This document shows, piece after piece, positions 2,383-8,439 of a stretch of 64,000 nt of DNA. A model generated the notes under the pieces. The model worked only from the letters and a program-made list of their open reading frames with translations. It searched no databases and was not told the DNA's origin. Within the stretch, counting starts at the first letter, position 1. Each line of letters opens with the position of its first letter. Origin of the DNA: Candidatus Acidiferrum sp. (GTDB lineage: Bacteria; Acidobacteriota; Terriglobia; Acidiferrales; UBA7541); assembly GCA_035280065.1 (NCBI GenBank), contig DATEGO010000059.1, forward strand, positions 16,888 through 80,887, written 5' to 3'. A program made the translations under genes and the position numbers.

Positions 2383-3819
2383 TCACAAGCACGCGGCAAT
2401 GCGCGCGAGATTTTGAACGCTGCTCCGACCGCCATGTTTCATGATGTATAGGGCCCGGTCGGCGGAGCCAAGAAGTTTTTCCGGTGTGTCACCATCTTCT
2501 GGAAACGCTGCAACGCCGGCGCTGACGGACAGTGCCGGGGCTTCGGTTTCGGCGGCCAGCCGTTCGCGGATGCGGGTAACAACGCGCGTAGCAATGTCTT
2601 TGCCGGCTTCGGGCAGGACCAAAGCAAACTCGTCGCCACCGTAACGAGCTGCTGTATCAATGGCGCGCGAGTGATTGCGAAGAACTTTTCCGATGCGCAC
2701 CAGCGCACGGCTGCCGGTCAGGTGACCATATTGATCGTTGATGCTCTTCAAGCCGTCCATGTCAAGCAGCACCACACTGAACGGACGTTGTGTGCGGCGC
2801 GAACGGTCGAGTTCCGCTTCCAGGACGCTGATGAGGCGGCGATAATTCGCCAGCCCAGTAAGCGGATCGCTGACCGCCATCGTGCGCACTTGCTCGAACA
2901 GGCGCGCCTGGTCGAGCAAAGCGCCGGCAAGCATCACCACGTAGCTAAACGTCTTGCTCAGTTCCGCGAGGAAAAACGGCCCATCGAAAAGCTGGCGGGA
3001 AAACGCGGCGGAGACATGGCAGATTGCGTTCAGCGAAGCCACGATGAGCAGCGCATAGTCGAAAATGCTTGCGCTGCTCTTTTTGTCCTTCTCACTTTTG
3101 ATGCGAAGGCGGAAGCACGCCGCTGCAATCAAATAGAGCATGGCAGGAAGCAAATCCCAAGGCCGAGACAGAATATTCTTTGCATTCGCCACCGGTGCGG
3201 AGGGAGCGGCAAGGAACGCGGCGCTGGTCACGTACGCTGCCAGAGCTACGACGAGCAGGACGGCGGCGGTTTCCTTGCTGGGCTTGCGCGCCGTGGGCAT
3301 GTAGCGCTCCACGGCCAGAGCCGCCAGCAGCAGAACCGCGAGCAAAGTCCGGCTGACCATCCAGCCGAGCGGAACTTTCGAAAGGACTAGCGTTCCGTCG
3401 TTGAGCCCGTCGTTGAGTCCAAAGTAGCCGACGGTCTCGATGATTCCAGCAAGCGCAAAACCGAAGGAAAGAATCAGCGAGGTGCGATCGTGCGTGCCGC
3501 GAAACCGCACGAGGGCATTGGCGGCATAGCAGTAGCACAGGAGCGTTCCACCCACTTCGAGATACAGATAGGCTTGCGGCGAGGCTGCAACGGAGGTTTG
3601 CCGGGAATAAAAGATGGCCGCAAACAGGAGAGTCACCAGGGTCAGTGCGGTAGCGACAGCAAGGCGCGAGCGAAAGTTCCGCGCTGAAAGCGCTTGGCGG
3701 CTGCTTCCGAGAAACCCTGCGATACTAGGCCAACTCCCCACAAAATCTCCCAAACACCGAAGAAACACTGGCAAATGGCTAGAAAAGCAAGTTTGTGCCC
3801 TTTCTGAAGACAAAATCAC
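2383..3819 (-). CDS. Membrane-bound diguanylate cyclase (multi-TM MASE-like sensor plus GGDEF); true start may be downstream of 3819
   Basis: DPLTGLAN, LDMDGLKSINDQYGH, RYGGDEF motifs; about 8 hydrophobic segments N-terminally. Confidence 0.88.
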   Translation of the reverse strand: MILSSERAQTCFSSHLPVFLRCLGDFVGSWPSIAGFLGSSRQALSARNFRSRLAVATALTLVTLLFAAIFYSRQTSVAASPQAYLYLEVGGTLLCYCYAANALVRFRGTHDRTSLILSFGFALAGIIETVGYFGLNDGLNDGTLVLSKVPLGWMVSRTLLAVLLLAALAVERYMPTARKPSKETAAVLLVVALAAYVTSAAFLAAPSAPVANAKNILSRPWDLLPAMLYLIAAACFRLRIKSEKDKKSSASIFDYALLIVASLNAICHVSAAFSRQLFDGPFFLAELSKTFSYVVMLAGALLDQARLFEQVRTMAVSDPLTGLANYRRLISVLEAELDRSRRTQRPFSVVLLDMDGLKSINDQYGHLTGSRALVRIGKVLRNHSRAIDTAARYGGDEFALVLPEAGKDIATRVVTRIRERLAAETEAPALSVSAGVAAFPEDGDTPEKLLGSADRALYIMKHGGRSSVQNLARIAACL

Positions 3820-4170
3820 GCCTTTGCAAGCCTTTACGTTTCAATGATTTACCGTGCAACTTGCTAAAGACTTGGATCGGGTTCAACGGAGCGAGACAGC
3901 ACGAGGAACAACCAGTTTCCAGTCTGGTACTGGTATCACCTTTGTTTCGTTAGAGTTACCGGGCAATTGGACAGTATCAGTGAGATTCCTGTCGATTTCT
4001 CAGGTTGAGACAATCTCAGACATGAAACGGAAACATTTTAGGCAGACAGATCAAAGTGGTTTGTTCAACAAGGGGGAATAGAACTAGAAAAGGAGTTGGC
4101 CTCTTCTCCCGTTCGAATAACAACCTGGGTTTGAGCGCGGCGGGCCCATTTGATGGCGACGGGTGAAACG

Positions 4171-4410
4171 TTAGATGCCAGGTTTTGGTTTGGGAGGAGG
4201 AAGTTCGCGGGCGACGACGGTGTCCGAAAAGCCCGAAGTCTTGTGAGAGCCGTCGCAGAACGGTTTGTTTGCGGAATGGCCGCAGCGGCAAAGGGATACG
4301 GTAGTGCGTCCTGCTAGCCCGAAAGGCGCTCCTTGCGGATCGACGATTTCGAAGTCTCCTTCGACACGAATGGAGCCGTTGCTGTTTACCGTGATCTTGG
4401 TTGCGGCCAT
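4171..4410 (-). CDS. CDGSH iron-sulfur domain protein
   Basis: LCRCGHSANKPFCDGSH motif; GGAGG RBS before the ATG at 4410. Confidence 0.92.
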   Translation of the reverse strand: MAATKITVNSNGSIRVEGDFEIVDPQGAPFGLAGRTTVSLCRCGHSANKPFCDGSHKTSGFSDTVVARELPPPKPKPGI

Positions 4411-4524
4411 TTTTCCTCCCCTCGACGAAGAAAGTATGCCTGCCAGCACACTTCATGGACAAGCAGAAACAAAAGGAGTCCGCGCTTGGGCGGACCCTTT
4501 TCTAGAAAGAAATTCGCTCGCGCA

Positions 4525-5709
4525 CTAATACTTCGGGACGGATGGATCGACCTCGTCGGACCAGGCGAGAATGCCGCCTTTCATATTGAGCACTTTGCGG
4601 AAACCGGCTTTGCGCAAAAAGTCGACCGCCTCCGCGGACCGCTTGCCGCTGCGGCAATGCGCGACGATTTCGCGCGAGGAATCGAGTTCGTGCACGCGCC
4701 GCGGCAATTCGCCGAGCGGGATCAATTGGCCTTTCAAATTGCAGATCTGATATTCGTGGGGCTCGCGCACGTCAAGGATGAAAAGATCGTCTCCGCGGTC
4801 AAGACGGGATTTCAATTCGCGGGGAGTGATTTCAGGCACTTGAACGTTTGGCGCGGGAGCTTCTTCGCCGCGAACTCCGCAGAATTCGTAGTAATCGATG
4901 AGTTTGTGAATGGTGCGATTCGAACCGCACATGGGGCACTTGGGGTTCTTGCGCAGCTTGAGTTCGCGGAAGCGCATTCCCAGCGCGTCAAAGAGCAGCA
5001 AGCGTCCAATGAGATTGTCGCCACTGTCGAGAATCAATTTGATGGTTTCCATGGCTTGGATGGAGCCAACGATTCCGGGCAGAACGCCGAGGACACCGCC
5101 TTCAGCGCAGGAAGGCACCAAACCCGGCGGAGGCGGTTCGGGATAGAGGCAGCGGTAGCACGGGCCGTCGGGCATGCCGAAAACCGTGACTTGCCCCTCG
5201 AAGCGGAAGATCGAGCCGTAGACGTTCGGCTTGCCGAGCAAAATGCAAGCATCATTGACGAGGTAGCGGGTCGGAAAATTGTCCGTGCCATCCACGATGA
5301 AGTCGTAATCCTTGAAGAGTTCGAGGGCGTTTGCGCTGGTCAATTGGGCTTCGATGGATTCAATCTGAATATCCGGATTGAGATTGGAAAGGCGCGCGCG
5401 AGCGGCCTGGCTCTTGGGTTTGCCCACATCGCTGGTGCCAAAGGTGACCTGGCGCTGAAGATTGGTGAAGTCCACGACATCGAAATCAACGAGGCCGAGC
5501 TTGCCGACGCCAGCGGCGGCAAGATACAAACCGAGCGGCGCCCCCAGTCCGCCCGTGCCAATGAGCAAGACCTTGGCGTTTTTCAGCTTGAGCTGCCCCT
5601 CCATGCCGACTTCCGGCATGATGAGGTGGCGGCTGTAGCGAAGAATTTCTTCTTTCGAAAGCGTTGCAGTGGGTTTTGTCCCCGGCTGCGCTTGAGTGGT
5701 TGTAGCCAT
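4525..5709 (-). CDS. moeB: MoeB/MoeZ-type sulfur-carrier adenylyltransferase with C-terminal rhodanese
   Basis: RYSRH, GTGGLG, SNLQRQ-like TNLQRQ, CYRC and CPMC Zn sites, SCAEGG, rhodanese HCRSGKRS. Confidence 0.93.
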   Translation of the reverse strand: MATTTQAQPGTKPTATLSKEEILRYSRHLIMPEVGMEGQLKLKNAKVLLIGTGGLGAPLGLYLAAAGVGKLGLVDFDVVDFTNLQRQVTFGTSDVGKPKSQAARARLSNLNPDIQIESIEAQLTSANALELFKDYDFIVDGTDNFPTRYLVNDACILLGKPNVYGSIFRFEGQVTVFGMPDGPCYRCLYPEPPPPGLVPSCAEGGVLGVLPGIVGSIQAMETIKLILDSGDNLIGRLLLFDALGMRFRELKLRKNPKCPMCGSNRTIHKLIDYYEFCGVRGEEAPAPNVQVPEITPRELKSRLDRGDDLFILDVREPHEYQICNLKGQLIPLGELPRRVHELDSSREIVAHCRSGKRSAEAVDFLRKAGFRKVLNMKGGILAWSDEVDPSVPKY

Positions 5710-5813
5710 TGCCTTTCCCTGCCCTTCTCGATTCATCCAGAATATCAAAAATGGAAGCGAAAAAGTTCCGCGCGAGATTCAAACTGGAGAGAGGACTTCC
5801 AGGAACAGGAAAG

Positions 5814-6098
5814 TCAACAACAACAGCCGCCGGCGATGGAGGGAATGATGCTGATGGTGTCGCCATCTTTGGTGGTGGTGTTTTCTTTCGCGAGATAGCG
5901 AATGTCTTCGTCGTTGACGTAGACATTGACGAAGCTGCGCAGGCGGCCGTCTTCGGTGAACAGGTGCTTGCGAAGGTCGGCATACTGCGTTGTGAGACGG
6001 CTGAGGGCTTCGCCGACCGTGCCGGCGCTGAACTCGGCCGAATCCCGCTTGCCCGCGTAGGGGCGAAGCGGGGTGGGAATCATGACTTTCACAGGCAT
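5814..6098 (-). CDS. cysO: MoaD/ThiS/CysO-family ubiquitin-like sulfur carrier with a C-terminal CCC extension
   Basis: IPTPLR, FVNVYVNDEDIRYL, IIPSIAGG followed by CCC-stop. Confidence 0.88.
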   Translation of the reverse strand: MPVKVMIPTPLRPYAGKRDSAEFSAGTVGEALSRLTTQYADLRKHLFTEDGRLRSFVNVYVNDEDIRYLAKENTTTKDGDTISIIPSIAGGCCC

Positions 6099-6244
6099 TG
6101 GTTTTCTCCCTATATGGTTAAAAGCGCGGGTCTTCCCGACTGAAAGCCGAGACGCAAAAACCGCGAAAAACCCGCCACTACGAATTCAAGTTAGCAACTA
6201 GAGCCGCAGCAGCCCGCCGGGCTGAGGCTCGGCCTCTACGAACC

Positions 6245-6709
6245 CTAAACTGCCGCGCTGTGACGAATCTCGATGCCTTCGGGCGAAAAGGCGCGGCGAT
6301 CGTCGTCCAGGCGCCAGGAAGTCATGTCCTTAGGCGAGCCATTCTGCACGCTGACGATGATGTAGCTGTACCACGGCCACGCGTGATCTTGATCATACTC
6401 GCTCGGGCGCGCGGGATGATCGGGATGCGAATGATACCAGCCGATGACTTCCATACCTTGCGTCTGTGCGGCCTTGTCGGCTTCCAAGACATCTTCCGCA
6501 GTCACAGAAAAGCGATTGCGCGGAGAATCGTCGCGCCGGTTAACAAGCGGAAAAAGCGCCAGCACCTCGCGCGCAGCTTCTGGGTGCGCAACATCCCCAT
6601 CGCGGCCCAGCAGCGCACCGCAACACTCATGAGGATATGTTGCGGCGCCGTGTGTGCGAATTTCCTCGGCCAAGTGTCCGCCGATCCAAAGTTTGGCCTC
6701 TTCCGCCAT
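6245..6709 (-). CDS. mec: M67/JAMM metallopeptidase (Mec-like CysO-cysteine peptidase)
   Basis: YPHECCG and YHSHPDHPARPSEYD (JAMM HxH-x7-S-x2-D); lies between cysM and cysO. Confidence 0.9.
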   Translation of the reverse strand: MAEEAKLWIGGHLAEEIRTHGAATYPHECCGALLGRDGDVAHPEAAREVLALFPLVNRRDDSPRNRFSVTAEDVLEADKAAQTQGMEVIGWYHSHPDHPARPSEYDQDHAWPWYSYIIVSVQNGSPKDMTSWRLDDDRRAFSPEGIEIRHSAAV

Positions 6710-6712
6710 GGT

Positions 6713-7684
6713 CTAGTCTTCGTCCCAGAAGCGTTCGTTCAGGTACTTGGACGCAGAATCCGCAAAAACCGTGACCATTACGGCGTGTTGCTTTTTCGGG
6801 ATTCGCGCAGCTACCGCGAAACAACCCAGAAGCGCGGCCGCAGCGCTTGGGCTGACGAGGAGGCCCTCTTCGCGCGCCAGGCGCTTTACGAGGCGGTAAG
6901 CCTCTTCCGTAGAGACCGGCAGATTGTCATCAGCGAGCCGATCGTCGTAAATCGCTGGGCGAATCGCTGTTTCCATGTGCTTCCAACCTTCTAGGCCGTG
7001 GAAGGAGGCATCAGGTTGCAGGCTGACGCAGCGGATTTCGGGATTCAGCTCTTTCAGGCGACGCGTTGTTCCGACAAAAGTGCCGCTGGTGCCAAGTCCC
7101 GCAATGAAATCCGTAATGCGGCCGGAGGTTTGCTTCCAGATTTCGGTCGCCGTGGTTCGATAGTGCGCTTGCCAATTCGCTGGGTTGCTGTACTGGTCGG
7201 CGTAAAAGTATTTGTCCGGCTGGGCGGCGACGATTTCATGGACTTTGCGAATTGCGCCGTCGGTGCCCTCGTCGCCGGGAGTGATGACCAGTTCCGCGCC
7301 GAAAGCTGCGAGGATGCGCTTGCGCTCGTGAGAAGCGCTGTCGGGCAGGCAAAGCTTCACGCGATAACCCATTGCCGCGCCGATCATGGCGTAGGCGATG
7401 CCGGTGTTGCCGCTCGTGGCGTCAATGATGGTCTTGCCGGGCTTTAGTGCGCCGCTCGCTAGTGCGGCCTGAATCATGCTTAGCGCGGGCCGATCCTTAA
7501 CGGAGCCGCCCGGATTGAACCATTCGGCCTTGGCGTAGAACTCGACGTTTGGAAATTCGCTGCTTACGCGTTCGAGACGGAGAAGAGGGGTGTCGCCAAT
7601 CCGCTCGAGGAGAGACGAGCCTGACAGTGAATCGGGAATAGAGGATTCCCGGGCCGAAGCCGAGATGTGGCCGGTGACAGACAT
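6713..7684 (-). CDS. cysM: PLP-dependent cysteine synthase (CysM-like)
   Basis: IGDTPL, NPGGSVKDR (PLP Lys), ATSGNTG, GLGTSGT. Confidence 0.9.
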   Translation of the reverse strand: MSVTGHISASARESSIPDSLSGSSLLERIGDTPLLRLERVSSEFPNVEFYAKAEWFNPGGSVKDRPALSMIQAALASGALKPGKTIIDATSGNTGIAYAMIGAAMGYRVKLCLPDSASHERKRILAAFGAELVITPGDEGTDGAIRKVHEIVAAQPDKYFYADQYSNPANWQAHYRTTATEIWKQTSGRITDFIAGLGTSGTFVGTTRRLKELNPEIRCVSLQPDASFHGLEGWKHMETAIRPAIYDDRLADDNLPVSTEEAYRLVKRLAREEGLLVSPSAAAALLGCFAVAARIPKKQHAVMVTVFADSASKYLNERFWDED

Positions 7685-7995
7685 GGCAGGTCGTTTTGCA
7701 TAGGATCACTCCAGACCCTAAAGGGTCTGAGATATGCGACCAGTTTACTCCGAATTGATGCATTTTACTATCGCCAGGGTACACGTCTGGTTTTCTTCGT
7801 GTTAGGAGGCGTTTGAAGCGAAGGCCATCATGTGAATAGCCCAAACATGTGGGGCCGCCGCAGCGGTCCATATGCGGGATTGCGTCTTGCCGACAGGCCC
7901 AGAACGCGGGTGCAACACCATTTGCCGGACACGTGGTGAATGATGGGTTCGGCGCACTTTACAGAAGGGAGGGCAACCGCTACTCTGAATGAGCC

Positions 7996-8439
7996 ATGTG
8001 GAATGTCGAAGAACGATTCTCACCAAAGGCGATTGAAGGGTTGGCAGCGCTGGGGTTTGCGGTGGGCAGCACGCGCGGAGTGGTTCGCGTGGAAAAATAC
8101 GGCTGCGGCGCGGAATTCCGCAAGGGAACCGACGAGCGCTATCAGATGACCATCGCGCCAGCGATTATGCTGAAAGGCCAGTTCACGAAGTTGTGGGACG
8201 CGGGTTACCAGAAGTTTTTGCTGACGGACGAAGGATTGAAAATTCCCGCGCTGGCTTCGCACTTGCAGAATCTGCGGAAATTCAACGAAGAACTGCGCAC
8301 GGCGTTGGGGGTACCAACTTTCTACAACGAAGCGCTGGGTTCGGTGAGCCAGGTGAGCGTTTACGACCGCGTGCGAGGGCGCAAAGGCGATGTGCCGGAC
8401 GAAACGGTCGGAGCCCATAGCGCGGAGGGCGGCCACTAG
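7996..8439 (+). CDS. Hypothetical protein (147 aa)
   Basis: Clean ORF with protein-like composition filling the gap; no recognised motif. Confidence 0.65.
   Translation: MWNVEERFSPKAIEGLAALGFAVGSTRGVVRVEKYGCGAEFRKGTDERYQMTIAPAIMLKGQFTKLWDAGYQKFLLTDEGLKIPALASHLQNLRKFNEELRTALGVPTFYNEALGSVSQVSVYDRVRGRKGDVPDETVGAHSAEGGH

Follow-up and report, generated by a model that had tools for sequence, protein, structure and literature searches.

Why should a sulfur carrier that needs a free Gly-Gly end be encoded with three further cysteine codons before its stop codon, directly upstream of the gene for an activating enzyme? The question arose from a 64,000-nt stretch of DNA (the window, to which all positions refer), for which the nearest named relatives are Candidatus Acidiferrum. 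The initial annotation had proposed that a ribosome stalled on these codons when Cys-tRNA is low would keep open an mRNA stem that otherwise closes the ribosome-binding site (RBS) and start codon of moeZ.

The cluster lies on the minus strand. Its first gene, at 6713..7684, encodes a cysM-like PLP enzyme (Pfam PALP, 4e-69) of the cysteine-synthase family for which the NCBIfam cut-offs are not reached, the top match, cysM TIGR01138, scoring 342 bits against a cut-off of 394. There follow a Mec-like JAMM protease (6245..6709; Pfam Prok-JAB) with an intact metal motif E...HSH-x7-S-x2-D, a CysO-type sulfur carrier of the ThiS/MoaD fold (5814..6098, 94 aa; Pfam ThiS and translation) and moeZ (4525..5709), the proposed regulated gene, which encodes a ThiF-type adenylyltransferase with a rhodanese domain (Pfam ThiF and Rhodanese; NCBIfam PRK08762 above cut-off). 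The carrier is a protein gene of 282 nt located 3′ of cysM and mec and preceded by its own purine-rich RBS. Its ORF, read from 6098 to 5814, ends in AGG-CCC-stop, which confirms the annotated run of Cys codons; the three Cys codons (5817..5825), conserved among relatives and proposed to be the sensor, are all TGT and abut the TGA stop (5816-5814). The contrast drawn with neighbouring Cys codons also held, since TGC accounts for 9/9 of them in moeZ, 2/3 in cysM and 1/2 in mec. A gap of 104 nt separates the carrier stop from the moeZ AUG (5709). At the borders of the cluster we observed a gene for a CDGSH iron-sulfur domain 3′ of moeZ (4410-4171, minus strand), a terminator-like hairpin between the two (4497-4476, minus strand) and, 5′ of cysM, a divergent 147-aa ORF (7996-8439, plus strand) with no Pfam or NCBIfam match.

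All four protein types (a carrier with GG, JAMM, ThiF-rhodanese and CysM-like) are those of the M. tuberculosis CysO/CysM/Mec+/MoeZR route (PMC3227635), where CysO-Cys is cleaved by Mec. Unlike CysO of that route, the window carrier has residues after GG and is encoded directly 5′ of moeZ. In having post-GG residues and a neighbouring JAMM gene it resembles QbsE (GG-CF, with QbsD) and CxnE (with CxnF), whose tails are proposed to be JAMM-trimmed (PMC5925218); the accessible part of that paper describes no regulatory role of the tail codons. Because the carrier needs a free GG end and such trimming has been proposed for QbsE and CxnE, the Mec-like protease of the window likely removes the tail by analogy.

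The annotated pairing of the Cys-codon/stop arm with the moeZ RBS and AUG was recovered in both the MFE and the centroid folds of 5690-5840. In these folds 5825-5803, comprising the Cys codons, the TGA and an anti-SD pyrimidine stretch (5′ arm, 5803..5825), pairs with 5724-5701, which contains the purine-rich RBS and the AUG (3′ arm, 5701..5724). The defects are those described previously, two 1x1 mismatches and one bulge, and the isolated duplex has a predicted energy of -19.6 kcal/mol. The inner UCCAG/CUGGA pairing is also present (5802-5798 with 5788-5784) and stacks on the stem, but it forms a local hairpin (5784..5802) that is absent from the consensus of the clade. Overall, the fold of the region is no more stable than that of shuffled sequences (z = 0.30; 122/200 shuffles equal or better). 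A stop-arm/start duplex of equal strength occurs in 5/570 same-strand gene pairs of the genome, and the window arm pairs equally well with 0/570 other start regions of it; both figures are flattered, because the arm ends had been picked in the initial annotation after the match was seen.

A switch built on this stem would work as follows. With ample Cys-tRNA the ribosome would complete the carrier and depart, the Cys-stop-anti-SD strand would then pair with the moeZ RBS and AUG, and translation of moeZ from the long mRNA would be low. With scarce charged Cys-tRNA we infer that the ribosome would stall on the TGT codons and occupy the strand, so that moeZ output would rise. Mec would afterwards trim the tail and free the GG end; co-transcription of the carrier and moeZ is assumed throughout.

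There is a precedent for such a switch. In the mycobacterial sORF Ms5788A the SD of the next gene is sequestered by a polycysteine tract and freed when the ribosome stalls, as shown by mutagenesis (10.1101/834739); the same source cautions that some loci may have an output other than pairing. The accessible part of PMC13236596, which cites this work, adds nothing further on tails. The window shares with the mycobacterial polycysteine sORFs an ORF that closes with consecutive Cys codons, a gap of ~100 nt and a downstream sulfur-metabolism gene. A Cys-tract:SD pairing, with relief by stalling, is predicted for the window and its clade but lacks covariation. Ms5788A, however, is a dedicated leaderless sORF (<150 nt) at the 5′ end of its transcript with a very stable duplex (10.1101/834739), whereas in the window the sensor would be the tail of the 94-aa carrier, a functional protein encoded by the third gene of the cluster, with a weaker and lineage-limited predicted stem. 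Being neither leaderless, nor short, nor first in the transcript, the window locus is not a member of the leaderless-sORF attenuators. The leader peptides with Cys runs proposed for Mycobacterium, Propionibacterium and Bifidobacterium (PMC1262725) are similar in having the run near the stop, a pyrimidine-rich stretch behind it and no conserved terminator; they differ in being separate peptides 5′ of the operon, in Actinobacteria. A looser parallel is the microcin C pair mccA-mccB, in which, as proposed here, ribosomes on a substrate gene control the adenylating enzyme encoded next, but there ribosome binding induces intrinsic termination, with no amino-acid sensing in the accessible account (PMC4231749). 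A search of the open-access literature, with subscription journals outside its range, found no paper that treats the Cys codons at the end of a sulfur-carrier gene as a sensor.

Relatives were compared to ask whether the run is under selection and, if so, whether in the mRNA or in the protein. The carrier was detected in 202/260 genomes of the genus (a tally including G090). We analyzed 250 loci (30 + 80 + 140), 225 of them unique among the matches listed; 54 of the carrier matches from the 202 genomes lie outside this set. Among the 195 loci in which moeZ has a start of its own, 23 tails close with at least two Cys, 10 have CC internally, 36 have a single Cys and 126 are Cys-free. The absence of a Cys run from most relatives counts against a sensor. 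Cysteine nevertheless makes up 11% of the post-GG residues (1506 residues in 209 tails) versus 0.97% in long ORFs of the genome. Among representatives at 50% identity CC occurs in 10/86 short tails, and distant carriers with Cys-run tails were seen at P0125, P0150, P0184, P0200 and P0272.

Terminal Cys runs of the relatives use TGT in 61/69 codons and are followed by TGA in 24/25 cases. The moeZ genes of 26 hand-picked Cys-tail loci have TGT in 6/213 Cys codons, the genome-wide TGT share is 23%, and the only Cys tRNAs found in the genome have the GCA anticodon. TGT is maintained in carriers that are only 45-55% identical to that of the window, while moeZ and the paralogous carrier described below use TGC. 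The run lies anywhere from 3 to 51 nt from GG and yet is in frame in 23/24 loci; runs 7-19 residues from GG still sit at the stop, and Cys units have been duplicated repeatedly. Cys tails precede a gap of at least 40 nt in 61/62 cases (all genome sets). From these patterns the Cys run looks to be under selection at the mRNA level. Counted on a FastTree of 282 rows the Cys element requires 22 changes; the loci are kin, and tree-based tests on independent pairs were not significant and underpowered.

The single frame exception is L041, in which the TGT run and the motif downstream of it are kept but shifted by one base, so that the tail is read without Cys; this is either a real loss or an assembly error. 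Some gaps are unusually built. In L003 a moeZ-like start occurs twice, 96 nt and 236 nt past the stop, with an insertion in between, and the gaps of L157, L164, L190 and L209 measure 241-311 nt, those of L157 and L164 sharing an unrelated insert, perhaps a mobile remnant or a small ORF.

These data bear on a purely protein-level explanation, in which Mec would recognize the Cys tail as a product-like substrate, or the tail would serve as a metal or redox tag to time maturation, and TGT is inherited or a slippage repeat. Cys is indeed the commonest first residue after GG (62/115 close relatives), the known Mec substrate is CysO-Cys (PMC3227635) and QbsE bears GG-CF (PMC5925218). A comparison is provided by a paralogous carrier. 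The copy in the window genome, G000:C129:25843-27437 (L491), ends GG-SW, and the gene 5′ of it is, as judged from its sequence, threonine-synthase-like (thrC-like). Its relatives end GG, GG-CC or in a long tail rich in Cys, for example CCSCCSYCGQEECTCC, encoded by TGC, and are often followed by a terminator-like hairpin. A class-wide search for IAGG-CC (136/401 genomes) was dropped, as only 2 of 30 inspected loci were carriers, while many of the 30 had what we take to be a methionine synthase motif and the remainder were other frames.

A metagenome search with the pattern PSIAGG-CC, which forces the first two Cys and leaves their codons free, gave at least 120 loci, 116 of them unique. Among the matches listed, 60 were of the cysO type, 33 were paralogous carriers and 23 were unrelated frames; a moeZ match lay near 46 of the 60 and near none of the 33. 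In the first two Cys codons, again among the matches listed, TGT was used in 92/120 cases in the cysO type, 8/66 in the paralogue and 8/46 in the unrelated frames. Later residues of the listed cysO-type tails were 26% Cys, with TGT in 68/82 of these codons. The paralogue thus has CC with TGC and the moeZ-linked carriers have CC with TGT, and the TGT bias therefore goes with moeZ-linked tails and not with CC as such. Since the paralogue does carry CC in some genomes, with ordinary TGC codons and sometimes extended like metal-binding peptides, the tail may have a role in the protein; in an unselected sample, however, only 2/26 thrC-like-linked tails had CC. A role confined to the protein would leave unexplained why TGT is found in moeZ-linked copies only, why distal runs sit at the stop, why they go with a long gap and why the run also occurs in free-standing sORFs, and we regard it as improbable.

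The free-standing form was found in one of three further families, all sampled without selecting for Cys. In the first (L431-L458) 15/28 loci are carrier-MoeZ fusions and 13 are overlapping or have a short gap, and the Cys element occurs in none. In-frame fusions were also seen in 13/225 loci of the first set, including L022, L029, L057, L189, L202 and L219. The second family has a Cys tail in 25/29 loci, 24 of which end C-x-C-x-TAG with the last Cys always TGT. These 24 (L461-L487) mostly have the tail RCICS with invariant TGT and TAG, and their stop is followed by a conserved G-C-rich hairpin with a variable loop and then by a C-rich stretch; the hairpin, which has no Rfam match, is a candidate for a separate RNA element. 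The third family (21 loci, G674 left out) has three Cys tails, ten loci with none and eight with a separate Cys-run ORF (L404, L405, L407, L408, L411, L417, L419 and L420). In these eight the carrier ends in GG plus 1-3 residues, and an ORF of 18-32 codons begins 0-23 nt past its stop, behind a GGAGG- or GGGGG-like stretch formed by the Gly-Gly codons of the carrier, and ends 44-66 nt 5′ of moeZ. TGT accounts for 33/51 of their Cys codons, one ORF has nine consecutive Cys, and three end TGT-CGC-stop, as do 17 fused tails. A similar Cys ORF was present in 1/55 long gaps of the genus set. The cassette is thus present as a tail or as an ORF and absent where moeZ is hard-wired to the carrier, and this fits a cis-acting sensor. 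A genome scan for other Cys leaders returned 22 candidates, none obviously 5′ of a sulfur gene, but its filter also missed the window's own locus, which makes the scan uninformative.

Comparison of the stem across relatives gave a more restricted picture. The 12 members of the window clade share a consensus fold that contains it, with 93% of cells paired versus 40-66% for slid controls (12 sequences), and the cost of opening the RBS is 7-13 kcal/mol in the clade versus a median of 5.6 in 60 no-Cys loci. The stem is also favoured by an anti-SD trinucleotide 3′ of the stop, found in 24/26 of the hand-picked Cys-tail loci versus 1/46 in comparison. Conservation of the stem is not general beyond the clade, and the covariation expected of a conserved helix was not found: no pair is altered on both sides, changes being one-sided only, and 500/500 shuffles reach the observed covariation. 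An expected number of at least four arm:RBS pairs was reached in 8/12 loci of clade A, 4/16 of clade B and 8/38 other CC loci, compared with 1/23 of the CxCS type, 0/7 with an sORF and 8/45 with no Cys; outside the window clade such ensemble pairing is no more frequent than where Cys is lacking. In a set of 78 distinct CC loci the cognate duplex of arm and RBS had no advantage over permuted partners (p = 0.43) or over windows of the moeZ coding sequence (median rank 0.68); for 26 picked loci the permutation p was 0.32, and for clade B 0.05-0.09, again not significant. Recoding Cys to TGC in the 78 CC loci made the duplex weaker in 34 and stronger in 23. The consensus fold of the first 84 nt of clade B contained zero pairs, but the RBS lay outside those 84 nt.

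The predicted effect of a stalled ribosome is likewise modest. Masking the arm reduces the opening cost of the window RBS by 1.8-2.4 kcal/mol, to no less than 9.2-9.8 kcal/mol, as pairing with the RBS is then taken over by pyrimidine stretches elsewhere. A reduction of at least 1.8 kcal/mol was obtained in only 6/12 clade members, and over 22 CC-ending loci the median drop was 0.43. On these folding models the Cys run may act on moeZ translation through the anti-RBS stem, a tentative proposal that we place somewhat short of an even chance.

The sensor could have a different output. The initial annotation overlooked a C-rich, rut-like tract behind the stop and a promoter-like element 29 nt 5′ of the moeZ AUG, both of which give rival outputs for its model. 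The 40 nt at 5774..5813 are C-rich and G-poor, with a C-G skew of 0.37 and 12 YC dinucleotides, values equalled in 6% (skew) and 2% (YC) of 772 genome controls. Rho might load on this tract and terminate transcription upstream of moeZ or in its first part, with a ribosome stalled on the same Cys codons covering the loading site, as a stalled ribosome does in tnaC. The skew of the 40 nt past the stop is 0.24 in 61 CC loci. The corresponding values are -0.03 for 37 long-gap loci that lack Cys, -0.01 for 33 paralogues and 0.00 for the 772 genome controls. The skew is positive past 6/7 sORF stops and has a mean of 0.23 past the CxCS hairpin (n = 19). An excess of C over G is the sole downstream trait that the lineages have in common, and a long gap is almost always present. 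A Rho model of this kind has been proposed for the actinobacterial Cys leaders, in a source that rates the prediction weak (PMC1262725). The comparison is limited in that the loci are kin and the independent-pair test is powerless. Moreover, the pyrimidine stretch of clade B is short, the sORF-to-moeZ gaps are just 44-66 nt, the sole polycysteine attenuator that has been dissected acts on translation according to the accessible text (10.1101/834739), and the TGT bias is not accounted for by pairing. As the same window bases are both anti-SD and rut-like, sequence cannot tell the stem from the Rho output. We consider termination by Rho as the output unlikely, though deserving of more weight than the protein-level role; translational shut-off of moeZ through the stem could also feed Rho polarity.

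The promoter-like element leads to the question of whether anything is sensed at all. At 5739..5747 the window has an extended -10-like TGnTAnnnT, a candidate internal promoter, which is found 27-30 nt 5′ of the AUG in 12/12 clade members; TTGnTAnnnT occurs in 15/61 CC gaps versus 0/37 others. An RNA starting at TGnTAnnnT would have a freer RBS in the window (5.9 vs 11.6 kcal/mol). A second element, the rigidly spaced motif G(A/C)ATC-N16/17-CATC(T/A)(A/G), is present in 25/61 CC gaps and has 82 matches in the entire genome. It is often located 21-34 nt past the stop, being found in the gaps of L006, L007, L018, L047, L131, L144, L152, L156, L157, L160, L182 and others; in the window only TGAATC (5776..5781) marks the site of its upstream half and the downstream half is absent. 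The motif looks like an alternative-sigma promoter for moeZ. A literature search gave no match to it, and a sigma-70 scan of window positions 3800-8100 gave 0 sites. Two sequencing runs of uncertain kind, assembled into contigs, contained relatives only and do not reveal transcript starts or strand. Judged by consensus sequences, the gap elements are presumably of the sigma-70 and ECF types; such promoters would give moeZ a second input bypassing the sensor. The proximity of the TGT run to the spaced motif (21-34 nt) also made us consider the run as a DNA site, which was rejected as the sole cause because the Cys frame is kept in 23/24 loci.

moeZ could accordingly be driven mainly by a gap promoter, or be plainly coupled to the carrier with any ribosome melting the stem, the Cys run being a vanishing remnant. 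Besides the elements just described, the 22 changes of the Cys element on the tree and its absence from most loci speak for such a history. It does not sit well with TGT being kept at 45-55% carrier identity while moeZ and the paralogue use TGC, with the retained frame or with the duplicated Cys units, and an internal promoter and an attenuator may coexist as two inputs. We give the absence of sensing little credence, about as little as a role in the protein only. As to intrinsic termination, the gap of the window has a single weak hairpin, in which 3 pairs are G-C (5771-5757), and the clade consensus has a 4-pair hairpin ahead of a U run. No known RNA family matched 16 loci at the Rfam gathering score, and elsewhere in window 5500-8000 Rfam gave only 3 chance-level matches.

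Returning to the Cys-codon sensor, we find that the core of the original proposal is favoured by the TGT bias of moeZ-linked carriers, the retention of frame, the link to a long gap and the sORF form, and that its named output, the stem, is limited to the clade and lacks covariation. That the Cys run senses cysteine through some output is in our judgement probable, with the reservation that a ribosome stalled in the tail would also delay the finishing of the carrier. We lean, by a narrower measure, towards the fuller interpretation that in Acidobacteria an amino-acid attenuator lies mid-operon, within a tail that is cut off from a working protein, that the cassette flips in evolution among a fused state, a mini-ORF state beginning just past the carrier stop and a deleted state where carrier and activator are coupled or fused, and that nine bases serve as gauge, product-like protease substrate and switch strand. 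Relative to known attenuators the likely novelty is that the sensor lies in the probably disposable tail of a working protein and not in a separate leader peptide.

Searches for attenuators focus on short leader ORFs 5′ of operons. If the interpretation is correct, sensor codons can also lie within an ordinary gene, in its removable tail, and a sensor so placed can set the ratio of substrate protein to activating enzyme within one operon. Cysteine attenuation would then extend from mycobacteria to the Acidobacteria, a phylum abundant in soil, and the tails, mini-ORFs and fusions that occur naturally would form a ready series on the origin of such sensors.
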